A DNA stretch of 64,000 nt. Source: Eledone cirrhosa. Taxonomy: Eukaryota. Positions 2,792 through 59,519 of this stretch are shown piece by piece. Below the pieces are notes generated by a model, which saw only the letters and a list, made by a program, of their open reading frames with translations, was not told the origin of the DNA and did not search any database. Positions within the stretch are counted from its first letter, which is position 1, and every line of letters begins with the position of its first letter. The stretch is taken from positions 40,734,001 to 40,798,000 of the forward strand of contig OZ024746.1 of NCBI GenBank assembly GCA_964016885.1, in the 5' to 3' direction. The position numbers and the translations under genes were made by a program.

Positions 2792-4079
2792 ATTATTTCA
2801 TTGCAGATGGCAGAAACAACAGTCACCAATATGGCATAGGACACGCACACATTTCTAGTTCTCGAGTGAGCTGTTCCATTGATCGTATCAACTAAGTCAT
2901 TCGTCGTCGGAACCGACAGTGTTCCAAATAACATACACACGTGTGTGTGTGTGTGTGTTGCAAATTATACTTATACTAAATGTCAAATGTATGCAAAGCT
3001 GAAGAGTACAACTCAACATCATCAACTGAGGCATGATATCTACACAATTTTAAACCCTCATAACTTAATCTTTGGTGAATTTACGTCAAATAAATGTTAA
3101 AATAAGAGCAGTAAACTTTTCAGTTCAATTTTTCTGAATCAAGGGATAGAAAAAGAAAAATAGGGCAAAATCATATATTCGTCTAACCCAAATAGTTCTT
3201 AGTTTGACAACATCTTCCCTACACACATATAATATAAACATACCTGGATATACATTATTGACATTTTTTCACTATAGTTTTCTAGACAACCTTCGTATTA
3301 TGAACTGATTTCCACCTGTTTTTACGCTAACACATTCCAAACAATCTTCTATTGTTAGTCTGGGATTGGTGACACAGTTTTATTTCAAGAAACATTTGCA
3401 GTTACACAGGTTTCTTCATATTATTATTATTATTATTATTATTATTACTAATATTAATCAGTGTAAAGAAATCTTCATGCTTTATTTATTAAGTGTATGG
3501 GAAGACAATCTCAAGTTCAGTGAAGGTTACCAACTTTATTGATAAATGTGTTGTATATTGAGAAATTTTACCTGTACTATATATGAATTGTATGAAACCA
3601 AATTCAGCTAATTCAAATATATTGACACTAAAATCTATTTTCTAGTCACGATGGTCATTGAACGTAGTGGTTATAATATTGAGTGAACAGCAACGTGGTA
3701 GTAACATTATAGAAATATTTTTCTATCATCAGTCCCAATTGAAACTTACACACAGATGTTAAATAAAGTGAACTAATATTAATTATCGGCTTGAATGCAA
3801 ATTAAGAATAACATTTTAAGAATCTTGCCTTATTTATATGCTTATTATCTGTATACATAGTAGATTTAGTTGTTGCACAAGGGCAGCCTTGATCAAGCAA
3901 AGCTATGACCCATCGGTGACTTTCCTTTCATGTTTTCCCTCACAGACACCATACATTTTGGACTACATTATCCAACATGCCCTTCCTTTTTAAAACAGTA
4001 GGGTGTGATTTGAGAGAGATTATAGTTGCTATTTCTAGTTGGTCGAAAAACTGTTGCCACGTAGTAGATTATATTATTA

Positions 4080-21642: not shown

Positions 21643-24620
21643 GCCTTTTGTGGAGTTCACTCTGCTACGAACATTCAGACTAAACCTCCTGTCTGAGGAT
21701 AACTTCTCCTCTTCCATATAGAAACTTTGACGTCATGTAAAGGGTCACAGGCGCTCTAAGTCACACACACCAAAAAGAGAAGAAGAAAAAACAAAACGAG
21801 AGGAAATAACGGATTATTCGTCGAAATAGTATATAATTGTTACAGAAAAGACTACGATGAAGATGAACTTTTTCAGATCATGTCAACACACAGCATTTGA
21901 TGGTTACATGTAGGAAGCGAAGGAAGGTGATAAATTAGCACCCTTCAGCATGATCTAGCGATTTGTTTTTAAATAGAAATTCGGAAACACTAAAGGATGT
22001 CATGTGCGACCTAGTTAAGGTCACAGACTAGAAAATAAGCTTAATACAACTTGTTGCTATGGAAACTGTAATAGCAGTCAATTCCAGCAATTAAGAAGTC
22101 TTCAAATGAACTCAGTGGCCTGCCGATGGTTTCTTTCTAAAAGAAATTATCCCCATCTTCCCCGAAGTTCAATTTCATAAGTTCGAGGTGGAATCTTTCT
22201 TCCTATTTAGTGTAAAATATAACAAGTGAATTTCAAAATATGAATTGTTCAGTGGAGATGGAAATTATTAAATAGAGCAAGTTCCCACTCGAATGAAGAA
22301 ATAAACTTAATTTGAACGTCATATCCTTGTTTGATTATATCGATAGATGGTAGGTCAAGAACAATGCTACAGTGTATCAACCCTAAGGTCATTTATTGAT
22401 TTCTCGCCTTTACGCATATAGCAGGAACAATTATTTTAAAATCTGTTTCATATAGTAAATTATGATATACTAAACGTTGGAAGAGAAAGGGAGGGGGTTG
22501 CGTTGGAATTCGTGTTGTCCTCATTAGTAAAGGTAAAACACAAATTACAAAGCTGCGTTTCATCAAAACAGTTTTTTTTTAGTCTTACATCTCTTTTACC
22601 GCCACAAGGAAGATCTGCTTTGAATAAGCCCGTGGACAATTTTTTATAGTTAGTTTGTTTTCAGTTATTAATTCGCTATCTATATTCCAGTAATGGAGAA
22701 TTCTAAACGAAAATTCAGTTCGCTACGTTTTTTTTTATTACTTACAACACACCAATAAACTACAGGGCAAATGTTATAGGGAGTCAATTTATTCCATATC
22801 TCGTATATTGGGGAAAAAAATTAACTAAAAATTGAAATAGAAAGTATACAGATATCTTCATAAAACAATCATTTAAGGTCGTCTAACAAAATTACATATA
22901 AATGCCTTGAGCTAACGAAACGGACTGCTAGAAATAGCAGCTCAATTTCCATTATATTACACTGTATTATCTTAAAAAAGAAGCCACACATTATTTTATT
23001 GCTTAGTGAGGGGAAGAATAGCAGCGCCTGTGAGTTTGCAGGGTCCCCGAGATTACACGATTTACTGATCATCCTTAGACTGCATATCTAGCCAAAATGT
23101 TTTAACTATCTGCACTTCACCAGCCAATCAGCCAGCCATGGGCTAGGTGTGGTTTTAAACCGGGTGACAGACAGCCTTCTATACAGTTTCCGCCTATCCA
23201 ATTTTACCCACTAAGTTTTAGTTGACTCGAGACTGTGGTAGAAGACACTTGCCTAAGGTATCTCCTGATGTCAACGAATACATTGCAACAGAATTGAGAG
23301 AGGATGTGTGTAATACTCGGGTTATAAATTCAATTGCGAGTGGCACCGATTGAAGGAACAACTCCTATTCGGATAGATGGGATTTAAACATTTTACTTAA
23401 ACAGAATAACTTTATTTTAGTATATTGAATACCAATGCGCTTACACCATATTATCAGTACTCTCGACCTCGGCATGGTTTGAACCCCGAGAGCAAGGAGC
23501 TGGAACCAATACCGCAAAGTATTCCATCCGATGTTTTAACGACTCTGCCAATTTGCTATCTTATGCTGCAATCAAATATCAATCTAGTTTGACTAATTTG
23601 ACTCAGTGATGTTTACAAATCCAAGATATATTCATCAGAATATTGTCCGCTGTTTTCTAAAACAATAACAATAGTCATAAGTTTAACGACAATTCTTCAT
23701 TGTATATATTGTACAACAAAAATATAATTAATTGGTAAGAATCATTATGATAATGATGATGATAACGATGACGACGTATTGCGGTTTGGAAGTGAAAACA
23801 AACTCCAACCACAGATGAGTATGCATATTGATAAATAGGTTAAGTTTTAAGATAAACCTTAAGAATAACACGAGAGACATTTAGAGAATAGGTCATTCGT
23901 TTCTTTTATAAGAAATACACCACTTTCGTTAATAGGACATTGTTTTCGGCGAGATCTACCTTCTTCGTTAACAACCGAAATATTTACCTGCGTTATTCCA
24001 ACAAGTATGGCAAAAAAAATTATAAATAACAAAAGTCACATCTCTAATAATTGTTTCTACTTTAGGCCCAAGACCAGTAATAATTTTGGGAGTGGGGAAA
24101 TCGATTAAATCGACTCCAGTGCATTACTGGTGCTTTAATTTATCGACCCCGTAAGGATGAAAAGCAAACTTAACCTCGACGGGATTTGAACTCAGAACGC
24201 AAAGGGCCATAACTCTATACCGCAAAGCCTGGTGTCTGACGCTCTATCGATACTGCCAACCCAATAATGATTATACACAAAGATGGCCGAATGGTTAAGG
24301 AGTTCGCTTCGCAATCATTAGGTCATGTTCAATCCCATTGCGTGATATTTTGGGTACGTGTTATCTACCATGGGGTCGACATATGCCTCGTGAGTGAAAT
24401 TGGGTTGACGGAAACTGCCTAGAAGCCTGTATACATTTTTGGGGACACCATATATATATATATATATAAATTTTGAGTATATGTTGGTTGTTTACCGACA
24501 CCTCAGTATGCAGATTGGAGCACTCGACGAGTGCGCAGGTTGGTTTGGTTACTACGGAGTAATGTAAAATAAAATAATTAAGTCAAATATTTAAAATTTG
24601 GCTTCGTTTATTAAAGGTGT

Positions 24621-24675
24621 ACTGCTATATATATTTCGGTGACAGCCATCCTTGGCTGTGACCTCTTCAGGCAGT
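24621..24675 (-). ncRNA. Type I hammerhead ribozyme motif (family A, mirror copy)
   Basis: Reverse complement of 24915-24969. Confidence 0.8.
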
Positions 24676-24914
24676 CCGAATTGGTGTGGTAGAGACGGGT
24701 ACACATGTTGTTGAAGTGTTTAACTCCGTCAATACTCCGATATGCCCAGTTCCTGGTTGGGTTGTTATTTCTCTGAGGAACTGGAATCATATATATGATA
24801 TGATTCCAGTTCCTCAGAGAAATAACAACCCAACCAGGAACTGGGCATATCGGAGTATTGACGGAGTTAAACACTTCAACAACATGTGTACCCGTCTCTA
24901 CCACACCAATTCGG

Positions 24915-24969
24915 ACTGCCTGAAGAGGTCACAGCCAAGGATGGCTGTCACCGAAATATATATAGCAGT
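24915..24969 (+). ncRNA. Type I hammerhead ribozyme motif (family A)
   Basis: actgc-CTGAAGA-ggt c acagcca agga tggctgt c acc-GAAA-tatata-TA^gcagt: stem I actgc/gcagt, paired stem II, palindromic stem III. Confidence 0.8.
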
Positions 24970-25460
24970 ACACCTTTAATAAACGAAGCTAAATTTTAAA
25001 TATTTGACTTAATTATTTTATATATATATATATATAGTAATAATAATAAATTTGAAGACTAAAATTCAAAGAGGGCTCGATAAGGATAAATATATATCAA
25101 ATATATAAGAACCGTAGAGCAAATATTTATTAAAATAACAGATTAAAGTTTAAGCAAAGAATCGCTGCTTTCACCCTTAACGGGATCTTCTGAAACTAAC
25201 ATAGTCAATCTGTAAACGCAGAAGTGGATATTTCAAAAAACGTTGCAACCGGAGGAAGATAGGAAGACGATACTTTGGTTAAACTTTAATCTGTTATTTT
25301 AATAAATATATATATATATATATATTGGAATAAATGCTCTGAAATAGCGATATATATGTGAATATAGACATAGAATATTCGAAAATATTCTGTATGTTTA
25401 TAATAAACATTTTGAAGACCTAATCGCTATAGAATAGAATACGTCACGTATTACAATTAG

Positions 25461-25550
25461 ATTCTCGATAAAAGCAAGGGAAGTAAATCTACGCGTTTCA
25501 TTCTCGTTAGAAATCGTCAGGACTACATATCCAGTGCTTTTATCGAGAAT
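25461..25550 (-). ncRNA. Type I HHR (family B), first of 7 minus-strand copies spaced 311 bp apart (last at 27327-27416)
   Basis: Minus strand: attctcgataaaagca ct ggatat gtagtc-CTGACGA-t ttct aacg agaa t-GAAA-cgcg-TA^gatttac ttccct tgcttttatcgagaat. Stem I is extended by a perfect 16-bp helix. Confidence 0.8.
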
Positions 25551-27702
25551 GACACAGCTAGAGACTTATAGAATACTTAGCTGTGTACAGGAACTGGTTT
25601 GAAAGAGCGGTTGCCGGTCCGGCAGAAATTAGAAATTGGAATAAATGCTCTGAAATAGCGATATATATGTGAATATAGACATAGAATATTCGAAAATATT
25701 CTGTATGTTTATAATAAACATTTTGAAGACCTAATCGCTATAGAATAGAATACGTCACGTATTACAATTAGATTCTCGATAAAAGCAAGGGAAGTAAATC
25801 TACGCGTTTCATTCTCGTTAGAAATCGTCAGGACTACATATCCAGTGCTTTTATCGAGAATGACACAGCTAGAGACTTATAGAATACTTAGCTGTGTACA
25901 GGAACTGGTTTGAAAGAGCGGTTGCCGGTCCGGCAGAAATTAGAAATTGGAATAAATGCTCTGAAATAGCGATATATATGTGAATATAGACATAGAATAT
26001 TCGAAAATATTCTGTATGTTTATAATAAACATTTTGAAGACCTAATCGCTATAGAATAGAATACGTCACGTATTACAATTAGATTCTCGATAAAAGCAAG
26101 GGAAGTAAATCTACGCGTTTCATTCTCGTTAGAAATCGTCAGGACTACATATCCAGTGCTTTTATCGAGAATGACACAGCTAGAGACTTATAGAATACTT
26201 AGCTGTGTACAGGAACTGGTTTGAAAGAGCGGTTGCCGGTCCGGCAGAAATTAGAAATTGGAATAAATGCTCTGAAATAGCGATATATATGTGAATATAG
26301 ACATAGAATATTCGAAAATATTCTGTATGTTTATAATAAACATTTTGAAGACCTAATCGCTATAGAATAGAATACGTCACGTATTACAATTAGATTCTCG
26401 ATAAAAGCAAGGGAAGTAAATCTACGCGTTTCATTCTCGTTAGAAATCGTCAGGACTACATATCCAGTGCTTTTATCGAGAATGACACAGCTAGAGACTT
26501 ATAGAATACTTAGCTGTGTACAGGAACTGGTTTGAAAGAGCGGTTGCCGGTCCGGCAGAAATTAGAAATTGGAATAAATGCTCTGAAATAGCGATATATA
26601 TGTGAATATAGACATAGAATATTCGAAAATATTCTGTATGTTTATAATAAACATTTTGAAGACCTAATCGCTATAGAATAGAATACGTCACGTATTACAA
26701 TTAGATTCTCGATAAAAGCAAGGGAAGTAAATCTACGCGTTTCATTCTCGTTAGAAATCGTCAGGACTACATATCCAGTGCTTTTATCGAGAATGACACA
26801 GCTAGAGACTTATAGAATACTTAGCTGTGTACAGGAACTGGTTTGAAAGAGCGGTTGCCGGTCCGGCAGAAATTAGAAATTGGAATAAATGCTCTGAAAT
26901 AGCGATATATATGTGAATATAGACATAGAATATTCGAAAATATTCTGTATGTTTATAATAAACATTTTGAAGACCTAATCGCTATAGAATAGAATACGTC
27001 ACGTATTACAATTAGATTCTCGATAAAAGCAAGGGAAGTAAATCTACGCGTTTCATTCTCGTTAGAAATCGTCAGGACTACATATCCAGTGCTTTTATCG
27101 AGAATGACACAGCTAGAGACTTATAGAATACTTAGCTGTGTACAGGAACTGGTTTGAAAGAGCGGTTGCCGGTCCGGCAGAAATTAGAAATTGGAATAAA
27201 TGCTCTGAAATAGCGATATATATGTGAATATAGACATAGAATATTCGAAAATATTCTGTATGTTTATAATAAACATTTTGAAGACCTAATCGCTATAGAA
27301 TAGAATACGTCACGTATTACAATTAGATTCTCGATAAAAGCAAGGGAAGTAAATCTACGCGTTTCATTCTCGTTAGAAATCGTCAGGACTACATATCCAG
27401 TGCTTTTATCGAGAATGACACAGCTCGATTTCTAACGAGAATGAAACGCGTAGATTTACTTCCCTTGCTTTTATCGAGAATCTAATTGTAATACGTGACG
27501 TATTCTATTCTATAGCGATTAGGTCTTCAAAATGTTTATTATAAACATACAGAATATTTTCGAATATTCTATGTCTATATTCACATATATATCGCTATTT
27601 CAGAGCATTTATTCCAATTTCTAATTTCTGCCGGACCGGCAACCGCTCTTTCAAACCAGTTCCTGTACACAGCTAAGTATTCTATAAGTCTCTAGCTGTG
27701 TC

Positions 27703-27792
27703 ATTCTCGATAAAAGCACTGGATATGTAGTCCTGACGATTTCTAACGAGAATGAAACGCGTAGATTTACTTCCCTTGCTTTTATCGAGAAT
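27703..27792 (+). ncRNA. Type I HHR (family B) in the inverted arm; second copy at 28014-28103
   Basis: CTGACGA at 27733-27739 and GAAACGCGTA at 27754-27763; predicted cleavage after 27763. Confidence 0.8.
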
Positions 27793-30700
27793 CTAATTGT
27801 AATACGTGACGTATTCTATTCTATAGCGATTAGGTCTTCAAAATGTTTATTATAAACATACAGAATATTTTCGAATATTCTATGTCTATATTCACATATA
27901 TATCGCTATTTCAGAGCATTTATTCCAATTTCTAATTTCTGCCGGACCGGCAACCGCTCTTTCAAACCAGTTCCTGTACACAGCTAAGTATTCTATAAGT
28001 CTCTAGCTGTGTCATTCTCGATAAAAGCACTGGATATGTAGTCCTGACGATTTCTAACGAGAATGAAACGCGTAGATTTACTTCCCTTGCTTTTATCGAG
28101 AATCTAATTGTAATACGTGACGTATTCTATTCTATAGCGATTAGGTCTTCAAAATGTTTATTATAAACATACAGAATATTTTCGAATATTCTATGTCTAT
28201 ATTCATATATATATATATATATATATATACAGACATACAGACACAATTATGGAGGCATGTTAGACAAATTAATCAATAATCTCAAATGGATCTTCCTAGC
28301 CGGTTTATCAACAATGAAGAAGGCTCCTTCCTTGCATTTAGCTTTGGTGACGACCTTTTATTAAGCACCAAACTTGAGTGCTATAGCAGTGGTAATAACA
28401 ACCAACAGACATTCCACCCAGTTGATTTATTATATTGATTTCAGTGCACAATACCTGCTAGATATAGCAGTCAAATCATTCACAAATACATCCAGTCATC
28501 TTAATAAAGGAAGGGCACGTTGGATAATTCTGGATATGCTAAATCAGAAAGTAAAGATACAGGGTGGTCACATCTGGAATGCCGTTTATCATCGAACTCA
28601 CCTTGTGAGGGCTGATATGGAAGTTAAACAATAACGACAAGAAATACTCTTTAGTAGCATGGTTCTTTAGAAATTGTAGTCAAATTTCCCTCAAAGAACC
28701 CCCTGGAACATAGTCATAGGTAAATTGCGGACTTAGAGCCACCTGCGGCCCATTTGGCTTTCTGAATGGCACGCCTAAGTTAAAAAATGTCTTGAATCTT
28801 TTAGTAGCGTTGCCCACCTTATGATGAACCACATTCTATAGGGCCCAATACTCAAGAAAGGTTGGCCATGTCTGTCCTAACATCTCAAAAGAAAAAGACA
28901 TTACATAATGTAGTCCTAGACAACCATAAAAAGATGGGATATTCATGGCAGGTATGCTCTATCAGGACTGACATAGGGGTAAACAACAACAACAACTAGA
29001 CAGGTTCTGTCTAACAAGGGAGTCTCTACGTGGCCATTCGACCTGCAATCAAATCTCCCTTATATTACAAATTACCTTCTTCAAAGGATGAGATTCTCAT
29101 GGATGGAACACCATTCATCATAAGTTAACTGAATCAGGGTTAAGCAGGGACTACAGCAACTAATGTATAAGCTAGAAGTAGTTTATATAATTGGCGATTT
29201 TAATATGGTTTAGACTCAGGTCAATCCTCTACCGGGCATACAACCTACGATAAAAGTCTTCTAGTCATGACTATCCCATCTTTTTCAGAGAACACACCAC
29301 CACATTATACTACATTGCACCAGATGTGATTTGAGGGGGATTTATTAACTCTTTCTAGCAAGTCGAGCGAAGGTGTAGAGATTTCCCCGTTGAATTGTAT
29401 GTATATTAATAGAACTAACTAATAGGAACAGAGGTGTATGTCTAGTAACTGCGTTCAACTGACATCCGAGAGAGAGGAGAGTTGCTATTGAGTCATCTGA
29501 AATATCCTCTCACTAGTGATGCTAAGACGGAACAGAGAACAGGGCGAAGAGTAAGAACGAAAAGTAAACTTCTTAGGAACGGAGGCGTAATAAAAATCGA
29601 TAAAAGTTTTATAGTGTATCCGGCTGGCTGTCAAAATGACATCATATGCTGTGTGATATCATCATTTTTCAACAGCCGTCCGTCCGCTTCGGCATCGATA
29701 TCTGTACATACATGTGCGCGCGCACACACACACAATGCCTAAAATATACAGGTAAATGCACACGTGTGTTGTGTTGTACATAACATACCTACATATTTTA
29801 ACAATGCATGATTTCAGCCTGTTTTATGGAGGAAAGTTTGTTACTAAGCAGGACGGCAATACAGCAGTGAGATCATTTGAAGGAATGGTTGAATTACATG
29901 TACGGGAGAAAGGGAGGGAGGGAAACGGGTAGAGATAGAGAGGGAGGTGTGAGAGAAAGAGAAAGAGAAAATATAAAAGCACACCTTTTATAATATCTAT
30001 TAATGAACCAGGATTCTTCAAAGACTCAACTCCCTCTCATGTGTGTGTGCGCGCGCGCATGTATACACACACACGCGCGCACGCAAAATAAACGGAAAAT
30101 AACAAAGCAAACAACATAGTAGAATGAAGATATATATTAATTTAACGCTTGGTATAGTAGGAAAAGAGTTTTAACGTTTTGGACGTTAACCCTTCACCAG
30201 AATATAAAAATAGGAAATAAAAGAACAAATAGAGGAAAGTGAGAGGCGGAAGAAATGGAAAAAATTTGGAGAAAAAGCACGTGTGTGTTCAGTTCACCAG
30301 AGAGAGAGAGAGATTGTGTGTGTGGGCGCGCGCGCGCGTGTGTGTGTGAATACATTCTGAAGGCACACATTCATTAAATCAGCCTCATCTTACAGGAGTG
30401 TCGACTGCACACACAAACCATGTCTTTGTTTCTAATCATGTAACCCAGGTCGTTGACCGTCCCTTGGTTAAAAAGTGACTAAGTGGAATTAAATGGGCCT
30501 GCGTCAGTTTCGGCGTTGAGAATTCCAGTTGTTCGATTAACGGGACAGTCTGCCCATGAAAGTCACGTGTAAAATGGCTGAGCATTTCACAGTTACGTGT
30601 TCTCTTAATGTAATTCTCAGGGAGATTCAGTGTGACAGTGTGTTTCAAGGCTGATCCTTTGAATTACAAGTATAGTTCATTCGACGAGCTTCCAAACAGT

Positions 30701-53765: not shown

Positions 53766-57560
<3,795 letters not shown>

Positions 57561-58487: not shown

Positions 58488-59519
58488 AATTTCCTAGATA
58501 TAACATTAAATCTCAACACATGTCTTCACTATCCTTTTCACAAGTTGAATGAAAACTTAAACTATGTAAACTTTAACTCTAACCACCCCAGATCTGTCAA
58601 AAACACTATAGTAAACTCTGTCCAAAAACGTATCTCTAGGATCTCGTCGAATAGAAAGATTTTCGACGAAAAAGCCCAATACTACAATGAAGCATTAGCT
58701 AGAGCAGGATATGCTGATAAGATTGTGTACATAGATAATGATAGACAAACTAAACAAAGTAACAACTTTTTTAATTACGGCAACATCCTTAACAACTATA
58801 ATAGAAAGCATTACAATAATTCCAAAGGCCAAAAAAGAAATAGAACTAGGAACATAATTTGGTTTGCCCCCCCTTTCTCACTAAACATTAAAACCCACAT
58901 CGCTAAACTATTTTTTAAAGCTCTTGATAATCGCTTCCCTAGAACACATAGATATCACTCAATTTTCAATAGACATACAATTAAATTAACCTACTCATCC
59001 ACCAAAAATTTAGCACAAAATATCAATAGAATAAATAATAGGAACTTAAAACCTAGTGATAACAGCATAAATAATATACAAGTTAACAAATGTAACTGTA
59101 GAGATAGATCTAAATGTCCGTTAAATAACAACTGCTTAGTTAAAAATATAGTATACAATTGTAATGTTAATACTGACTCTAATTCTTTTAACTACGTCGG
59201 TTCCACATCGACGGAATTTAAACTTCGCTATAATAACCACAAGAATTCTTTCACAGATCCAAGTAAAAAATCTTCAACGGCACTATCAGGCGTACTATGG
59301 CAACTTAAGCTAGATAACGTTAGATATTCGACTGCTTGGAATATAGTCTCAAGAGGGATTCCTTTTAATTCATCCTCTGAGACATGTGACCTCTGCGCAG
59401 AGGAGATATTCTTTATACTAAAATCTAAAAATTCCCTTAATCTACGGACAAATTTATTCAGCTGTTGCAAACATAGATTAAACTCAACGTTTAAGTATAA
59501 ATTTAAATTTAAAATGTAG
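58488..59519 (+). mobile_element. Penelope-like element ORF, uninterrupted C-terminal ~343 aa (RT thumb plus GIY-YIG endonuclease); 5' part lost in the gap
   Basis: NFLDITL...YVNFNSNHP...ALARAGY (PLE RT C-terminus), WFAPPF, CNCRDRSKCPLNNNC linker, IVY..YVGSTSTEFKLRYNNH, and CDLCAEE..LN.R...CCKH. Confidence 0.85.

Follow-up and report, generated by a model that had tools for sequence, protein, structure and literature searches.

Retrozymes, Penelope-like elements and the array in Eledone cirrhosa

The non-LTR (non-long terminal repeat) retrozymes of metazoans are described, in the available portion of PMC7229834, as tandem repeats of an approximately 300-bp unit of low GC content, which lacks an open reading frame (ORF) and carries a type I hammerhead ribozyme with a short palindromic stem III. 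An array of this kind occupies positions 25324-28205 of the DNA analysed here, a stretch of 64,000 nucleotides from the Eledone cirrhosa genome (contig OZ024746.1, positions 40,734,001 to 40,798,000, forward strand; henceforth the window). Its 311-bp unit has the properties that delimit the class, namely a length within about 170-400 bp, low GC and the absence of an ORF, LTR, primer-binding site and polypurine tract. Each unit contains one hammerhead with an intact core, and the family is dispersed through the genome as dimers to multimers. The assignment to a retrozyme-like class in an initial sequence-only reading of the window was thus correct, as the tandem ORF-less unit, the single type I hammerhead in each and the dispersed arrays attest.

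As in other retrozyme-bearing genomes, the array co-occurs with Penelope-like elements, and the synthesis of tandem cDNA from a circle has been proposed for retrozymes (PMC7229834; bioRxiv 10.64898/2026.07.22.740005; available portions of both). In those portions, the link between the two kinds of element is so far inferred from ribozyme type, co-occurrence and the phylogeny of pseudo-LTRs (pLTRs) (PMC7229834; bioRxiv 2026.07.22.740005). Unlike that evidence, the footprint of insertion is itself Penelope-like in the present case, where the array is known from DNA alone. The endonuclease-positive (EN+) Penelope-like elements (Neptune, Naiad and Poseidon) are reported, in the accessible parts of PMC8557442 and PMC3846280, to leave an inverted, 5'-truncated copy and a one-sided tail of 30-40 bp in a (TA)n or AT-rich target; they also carry a type I hammerhead and start internally at two adjacent sites (PMC11167929). 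The inverted copy, the one-sided tail and the (TA)n target are all found in the retrozyme arrays. Unlike the autonomous Penelope-like elements, the arrays lack an ORF for reverse transcriptase (RT) and the GIY-YIG endonuclease and are built of complete, identical units, many per arm; in addition, a comparison with the pLTR of one intact family, the only such family examined, showed no significant similarity to the unit.

In the twin priming of LINE-1, two primers on one RNA generate outward-pointing arms that meet at a central microhomology joint, and inversion is a minority outcome. The arrays resemble this process in their outward-pointing arms, apparently from one RNA, and their microhomology-joined centre. 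They differ from it in having no poly(A) start, in that both starts are fixed and internal, in that both arms are many times as long as the template and in that inversion is the rule.

Head-to-head arms, fixed asymmetric ends and (TA)n targeting are not described in the main-text portions of the published retrozyme accounts, supplements aside. A search of the open-access literature, with supplements and subscription papers outside its scope, brought up no report of retrozyme arrays with two arms, of strict pairing of a long and a short end, of clonal arms or of Penelope-like twin priming. Whereas the element class and its proposed Penelope-like mobilisation are already known, a two-ended Penelope footprint that was seemingly made on one template appears, as judged from sequence, to be new.

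Structure of the window array

The array consists of two head-to-head arms built from an identical 311-bp unit: a left arm of 6.76 units (25324-27425, ribozyme sense on the minus strand) and a right arm of 2.51 units (27426-28205, ribozyme sense on the plus strand). Neither arm shows a single mismatch to the unit, and the earlier count of about 6.75 identical units followed by about 2.5 inverted ones is therefore upheld. The GC content of the unit is approximately 34%. No frame stays open for more than 59 codons, in agreement with the reported absence of a long ORF, and the unit contains no RT or endonuclease ORF. There are seven complete hammerheads in the left arm and two in the right, where one further copy is interrupted within CUGANGA at 27426.

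Remnants of the (TA)n target adjoin the array on both sides, at 25306-25325 on the left, where AT is shared with the array end, and at 28205-28229 on the right. Target-site duplications of non-LTR retrozymes, where they occur, exceed 4 bp; none can be discerned here within the (TA)n. Neither a second haplotype nor an empty allele of the locus was found in the assembly. The identical units and the flanking (TA)n bear out the idea of a recent, ready-made concatemer integrated in (TA)n; the array is a real and very young non-LTR retrozyme insertion.

Positions in the unit are numbered from the first base past the predicted cleavage site, such that one predicted monomer of 311 nt, from cleavage site to cleavage site, spans 27764-28074 (plus strand). 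In this numbering, the left arm has its outer, long end (B) at position 166 and its inner end at 242, while the right arm has its inner end at 285, within CUGANGA, and its outer, short end (A) at 131. Site A, the short-end start (positions 131-140, ACAUAUAUAU; 27894-27903 on the plus strand), has an 8-nt match to (TA)n, whereas the match at site B, the long-end start (positions 166-168; 27929-27931, plus strand), is only 2 nt. The two arms meet at 27425/27426 in a blunt joint with zero microhomology, and their inner ends are offset by 43 nt.

A family of head-to-head insertions with fixed outer ends

We searched the whole genome assembly (3.0 Gb in 1,796 contigs) for related arrays. A degenerate 34-base pattern of the ribozyme core yielded 17,761 matches (control, 0), and the exact 41-base core of the window yielded 154. 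Array ends abutting (TA)n number 1,191 of type A and 1,180 of type B, with none in the controls, and the search for dispersed arrays that the sequence-only reading had proposed was thereby amply answered. The A ends fall at position 131 or 140, in an AU-repeat with the 8-nt target match, and the B ends at 166 or 168, with the 2-nt match, so that the B end exceeds the A end by 26-40 nt. The window array belongs to a set of over 1,000 dispersed head-to-head insertions of a 310-311-base hammerhead unit, and the family is young. The commonest unit period is 310 (40 of 46); the 311-nt form of the window represents a minority haplotype, found in identical form at 11 loci in the genome search.

A first survey covered 20 arrays in 19 stretches fetched around the best matches. 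Two arms of at least 45 bp were present in 17 of these arrays, always with the ribozyme sense pointing outward; of the others, one has a short inverted stub and two are one-armed, and none shows the opposite polarity. The outer ends of the 17 two-armed arrays comprise 11 A+B pairs, one pair of 140 and 161, two that were not assigned and three with an off-site end. In one of the latter (L040, 3494-4788), both ends lie away from the usual sites (199 and 229) and yet are 30 nt apart, as if the start sites had slid jointly.

The pairing of ends was then assessed along the first 222 Mb of contig C1, using the 100 listed A ends and those 91 of the 100 listed B ends that lie in this range. All 62 facing pairs within 16 kb are A+B (34 in the order B-A and 28 in the order A-B), with no A+A and no B+B. 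Among the first 20 of the 67 unpaired ends, seven proved to be further A+B arrays (one with a B stub of 11 nt), five are one-armed and eight run past the fetched stretch or into a gap; again, neither A+A nor B+B occurred. The layout is head-to-head in all of the 60 pairs that were fetched from the 62. The head-to-head inversion is therefore the rule of the family and not a one-off event.

Two other groups of repeats were observed in the fetched stretches. One, at L057 (1055-1449), is related to the 311-bp unit at 70-80% identity but is older; its hammerhead has decayed, and it ends in (TA)n at the equivalent of site A. A second retrozyme family has a 476-bp tandem unit with a type I hammerhead, a U-U at the base of stem II and the palindrome ACUAGU (L136, 1-2150), and motifs related to those of this unit occur in L052, L081, L133 and L134.

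Arm haplotypes

Haplotypes were typed at the 60 fetched loci, 43 of which were callable, with two-fold coverage of at least 150 positions in both arms. At every one of these 43 loci the two arms share one haplotype, compared to 240 of 1,804 (13%) comparisons across loci. Likewise, all 10 callable locus-private variants are present in both arms (one more was not callable). Differences from the window unit within arms comprise 311 fixed, 264 singleton and 4 multi-copy cases. Minority substitutions number 110; for 59 of them a comparison with the equivalent lap of the opposite arm was possible, and only two of these, which represent one event (L093), are mirrored.

Most arms (111 of 120) are longer than one unit, with a median of 3-4 and a maximum of 27.2 units, and the longer arm is A at 26 loci and B at 34. 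In 527 passes across the cleavage joint, we observed the inherited position-3 alleles only, together with about six other events within 6 nt. This is the pattern expected from a single-monomer bottleneck followed by rolling copying; its production from a linear multimer, or by a jump within one molecule, is less probable. The earlier proposal that one monomer is copied in rolling fashion is supported by the identical arms, their multi-unit length, the unscarred joints and the A+B ends.

The central joint

The inner-end positions were scored allowing both 310- and 311-base unit lengths. The 120 inner ends are distributed near-uniformly round the unit (chi-square p 0.16, Rayleigh p 0.03). Two of them lie within CUGANGA, versus 2.7 expected, and two lie at most 5 nt from the cleavage site, versus 3.9 expected; an apparent pile-up at the latter was an artefact of a 1-base indel at position 3. 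The break at CTGA/CGA in the window is thus attributable to chance, and no meaning attaches to the location of the strand switch within the ribozyme core. Nor does the inversion appear to reflect a template switch, as had been suggested, since the head-to-head layout is the rule (17 of 20 arrays in the first survey) and the outer start is fixed separately for the two arms.

Microhomology of at least 2 nt is found in 26 of the 43 abutting joints, where 18% would be expected under random joining, and 17 of the 60 joints contain inserts, several of which were copied from nearby sequence. Microhomology together with inserts is the established signature of microhomology-mediated end joining. The joints therefore suggest that two independently ended cDNAs were united by this route, rather than by a switch at a special site. 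Hairpin-like joints number six of 60 within 15 nt (6.0 expected) and three of 60 within 3 nt (1.4 expected).

The hammerhead ribozyme

The features of the ribozyme are given for a representative copy at 27703-27792 (plus strand), recognised by its sequence, folds and conservation across loci; the type I motif is present in each complete unit. Its 16-bp stem I helix (27703-27718/27777-27792) is perfectly paired and is reached through an internal loop. The core CUGACGA (27733-27739) is followed by stem II (27740-27753), which has a U-U at its base, by GAAA (27754-27757) and by the palindrome ACGCGU (27757-27762) with an A next to it, stem III being a single A-U pair. Cleavage is predicted after 27763, directly past GAAACGCGUA. 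The extended type I hammerhead that had been described for every unit is upheld by the motif and its conservation across the family. The fold of the monomer (-70.5 kcal/mol) is better than those of 100 of 100 shuffled sequences (z -4.3); in the minimum-energy folds of the unit, stems I and II are formed and the active core is not.

Across 56-57 loci, the core positions of the hammerhead show zero variation. Recurrent alleles concern N7 (C, U or A), loop II and the bulge in stem I; the others are U288>A, by which the first stem II pair is restored, and A>G changes opposite U in helices, which produce wobble pairs. Eight of the 10 recurrent alleles fall within the 42-nt ribozyme (p 4e-6). A-to-I editing was considered as the origin of the fixed variants and is unsupported (4 A>G versus 3 T>C alleles).

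The U-U at the base of stem II had been regarded as a possible cause of inactivity. This concern is eased, as U-U is the majority state (51 of 56 loci) and, according to the available portion of PMC7229834, the axolotl retrozyme hammerhead HHR_Amex2, which also has a U-U in this position, cleaved 22% as a monomer and better as a dimer. A short palindromic stem III is expected to make cleavage dependent on dimers (PMC4209133, available portion). By analogy, dimer-dependent cleavage is predicted for the present unit, because its stem III is short and palindromic.

Penelope-like elements in the genome

The head-to-head 3' end of a Neptune-like Penelope-like element is inserted in (TA)n at 24469-25021, 300 bp to the left of the array, with its long end on the left and its short end on the right. 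It contains a minimal hammerhead at about 24920-24965 (plus strand), and some 1,900 candidate copies are found genome-wide. The family includes intact ORFs of 893-894 aa, in which RT motifs are accompanied by a linker of the form CxCx5Cx4C and by a GIY-YIG domain, and full-length elements with intact ORFs are flanked by an inverted copy (L131, 1095-8780; L132, 709-6488). A first look at the genome gave 34,736 candidates for an RT of the L131/L132 type. In the Atlas clusters nearest to the protein, some of the members bear HTH_animal, GIY-YIG and RVT_1, and sequence searches of Pfam, NCBIfam and PDB gave no naming match. The putative Neptune-like label is based on the linker, as described in the available part of PMC8557442, and not on a tree.

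Of 25 Neptune-like loci examined, 14 are two-armed with readable ends; each of these lies in (TA)n and pairs one long end with one short end, the two being separated by about 95 nt. Three of the 14 long arms are stubs and one is interrupted. A second short element, whose tail measures about 70 nt, likewise occurs as head-to-head insertions in (TA)n, and its ribozyme core and stem II nearly match those of the retrozyme. It is represented by 197 candidates (e.g., L133 1257-1385, L059 at about 3270-3470, and L139-L168), most of which start just before CUGA. In comparison with the retrozyme unit, three of 300 shuffles scored as well, and 47 of 300 once the ribozyme was removed; no ORF was linked to this element in six extended loci. 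Neither of these two could be linked to the retrozyme as its partner: the Neptune-like family is dissimilar, and the similarity of the second element is confined to the ribozyme. The autonomous Penelope-like elements and the retrozyme nevertheless share one insertion footprint, and the intact ORFs represent candidate enzymes.

Elsewhere in the window, a different Penelope-like fragment at 58488-59480 begins after an N gap and has approximately 42% identity to the L131 protein in the linker and GIY-YIG region. The window also contains very long (TA)n-rich tracts at 53767-57557 (about 3.8 kb) and 61068-64000 (about 2.9 kb).

Proposed insertion mechanism

We consider it probable that the element is a retrozyme whose monomer RNA, itself likely circular, is copied in rolling fashion from both (TA)n ends by a Penelope-like protein. 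In this regard, the purified Poseidon protein of the anole, a predicted dimer, both cleaves and extends the two strands; initiation is internal, at two neighbouring sites on the RNA that delimit a tail of 30-40 bp (PMC11167929). The process would begin with transcription of an arm into a multimer, in which neighbouring cores would pair through ACGCGU as a double hammerhead and release monomers. The monomer, kept closed by the long stem I, would be ligated to a circle. A dimeric RT/GIY-YIG protein would bind the circle and cleave both strands of (TA)n; one cDNA would be primed at site B, where the protein sets the position and 2 nt match, and its counterpart at site A, 26-40 nt upstream, with the help of the 8-nt AU match. 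Each RT would circle the template for a variable number of laps, displacing its earlier product, until the two free 3' ends of the cDNAs were joined by microhomology-mediated end joining and filled in. The element is most likely selfish, without a host function.

The same scheme may apply more broadly, and we lean slightly towards it as an account of Penelope-like insertions in general: a dimer that primes both cut ends on one RNA, with a fixed site per strand, would yield tail and inverted copy in one step. On an RNA circle, the outcome would be double rolling-circle copying, and each insertion would be the clone of one viroid-like circle that had passed a single-molecule bottleneck with selection on the ribozyme.

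A number of observations weigh against the proposed mechanism. Three of the 17 two-armed arrays have ends off the two sites (81, 115, or 199 with 229), and one more has an end at 161. In vitro, the start sites of the anole protein showed no difference between top and bottom strands, and insertion did not require ribozyme cleavage (PMC11167929). At L093, both arms carry a minority variant at position 205 in their first lap and lack it in the second, which a single circle leaves unexplained. The same molecule is inseparable from two monomers of one source locus as the template, because typing covered 60 loci out of more than 1,000. The Neptune-like 3' region has no significant similarity to the retrozyme unit (255 of 300 shuffles score as well), and its tail of about 95 nt does not agree with the 26-40 nt of the retrozyme. 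As to the ribozyme, the Rfam hammerhead models gave no hit at the gathering threshold in the window and none at E<=10 in 24400-28400, the only matches below threshold being to miRNA families and driven by hairpins; the hammerhead call therefore rests on the motif and its family-wide conservation. The window haplotype has an extra base in stem I, seen at 2 of 57 loci on C1, which makes it 3.4 kcal/mol weaker. Finally, eight of nine Xenopus retrozyme dimers remained uncleaved in vitro, according to the available portion of bioRxiv 10.64898/2026.07.22.740005.

Alternative explanations

A linear template is unlikely, whether an uncleaved multimer transcript or a single linear monomer whose 3' end is kept close by stem I, so that the RT, on reaching the 5' end, could jump across to it, though of the alternatives it has the most to commend it. 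RNA that had not been processed was the main substrate of the anole protein in vitro (PMC11167929), and the mirrored first-lap variant at L093 would fit a multimer. Young source arrays are near-homogeneous, as the loci with zero periodic mismatch (21 of 52) indicate, so that a multimer would also give like units. Truncated multimers, however, would shrink the arms in each round, and arms of up to 27 units, with a median of 3-4, are observed. Every unit of a locus carries its private variants (10 of 10), and mirroring of minority variants is exceedingly rare. Scars are not seen, and inner ends are not enriched at the cleavage site (2 versus 3.9 expected); jumps among different monomers would mix haplotypes, and no mixing was seen.

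It is distinctly improbable that a single rolling cDNA folded back or switched template and copied itself into the inverted arm, as in the self-priming on an antisense template that is proposed for Penelope inversions in the available portion of PMC3846280. Such an event would account directly for the shared haplotype of the arms, near-perfect hairpins are found at a few joints (3 of 60 within 3 nt versus 1.4 expected), and the 8-nt (TA)n match of site A could capture a DNA end. Yet either arm may be the longer by many units (26 versus 34 loci), which copying of one arm cannot achieve while retaining the A+B ends. Hairpin joints are not in excess (6 versus 6.0 within 15 nt), the joint in the window is blunt with its 43-nt offset, and site B is precise despite a match of 2 nt only.

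Satellite-type local amplification of single units by unequal crossover or slippage, with the arms evened by gene conversion, has been discussed for vertebrate retrozymes (bioRxiv 2026.07.22.740005, available portion). Tandem arrays of similar size can indeed be homogenised by conversion, and inverted repeats can convert each other. We regard this as very improbable for more than 1,000 small, dispersed arrays with fixed outer phases, a single polarity and A+B pairing, in which units are partial, inner ends are random and haplotypes vary between loci and not within them. The initial judgement that the array is not an ordinary satellite thus holds, on the strength of its outer phases, polarity, end pairing and locus-specific haplotypes.

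An artefact of assembly or library preparation (fold-back chimeras) is scarcely credible: palindromes are hard to assemble and the 27425/27426 junction is known here from the assembly alone, but the flanks are unmirrored past the TA run at 59 of 60 loci, the ends are sequence-specific and asymmetric, and an independent run (X1) provided 521 contigs on the unit, 10 of them with (TA)n after position 140. Three other runs (X4, X5 and X6, from organisms B, C and D) each contain one 340-nt contig that closes into a 310-nt single-haplotype loop, at depths of 12-365; these were set aside and not used as evidence, because tandem DNA closes likewise and the kind of run is unrecorded.

Implications

The origin of the tail and the inverted copies of Penelope-like elements is named as unresolved in the available parts of PMC8557442 and PMC11167929. 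The more than 1,000 young and nearly identical insertions of the E. cirrhosa retrozyme, with their strict end pairing and clonal arms, provide footprint evidence both on the enzyme that moves retrozymes and on the formation of the Penelope-like tail and inversion. They also offer a compact test system, with an RNA of 310 nt, two start sites already mapped, (TA)n as the target and, in the same genome, candidate enzymes that are intact. If the proposed mechanism is true, the family would represent a natural case in which a small circular RNA is reverse-transcribed by rolling-circle copying straight into chromosomes.

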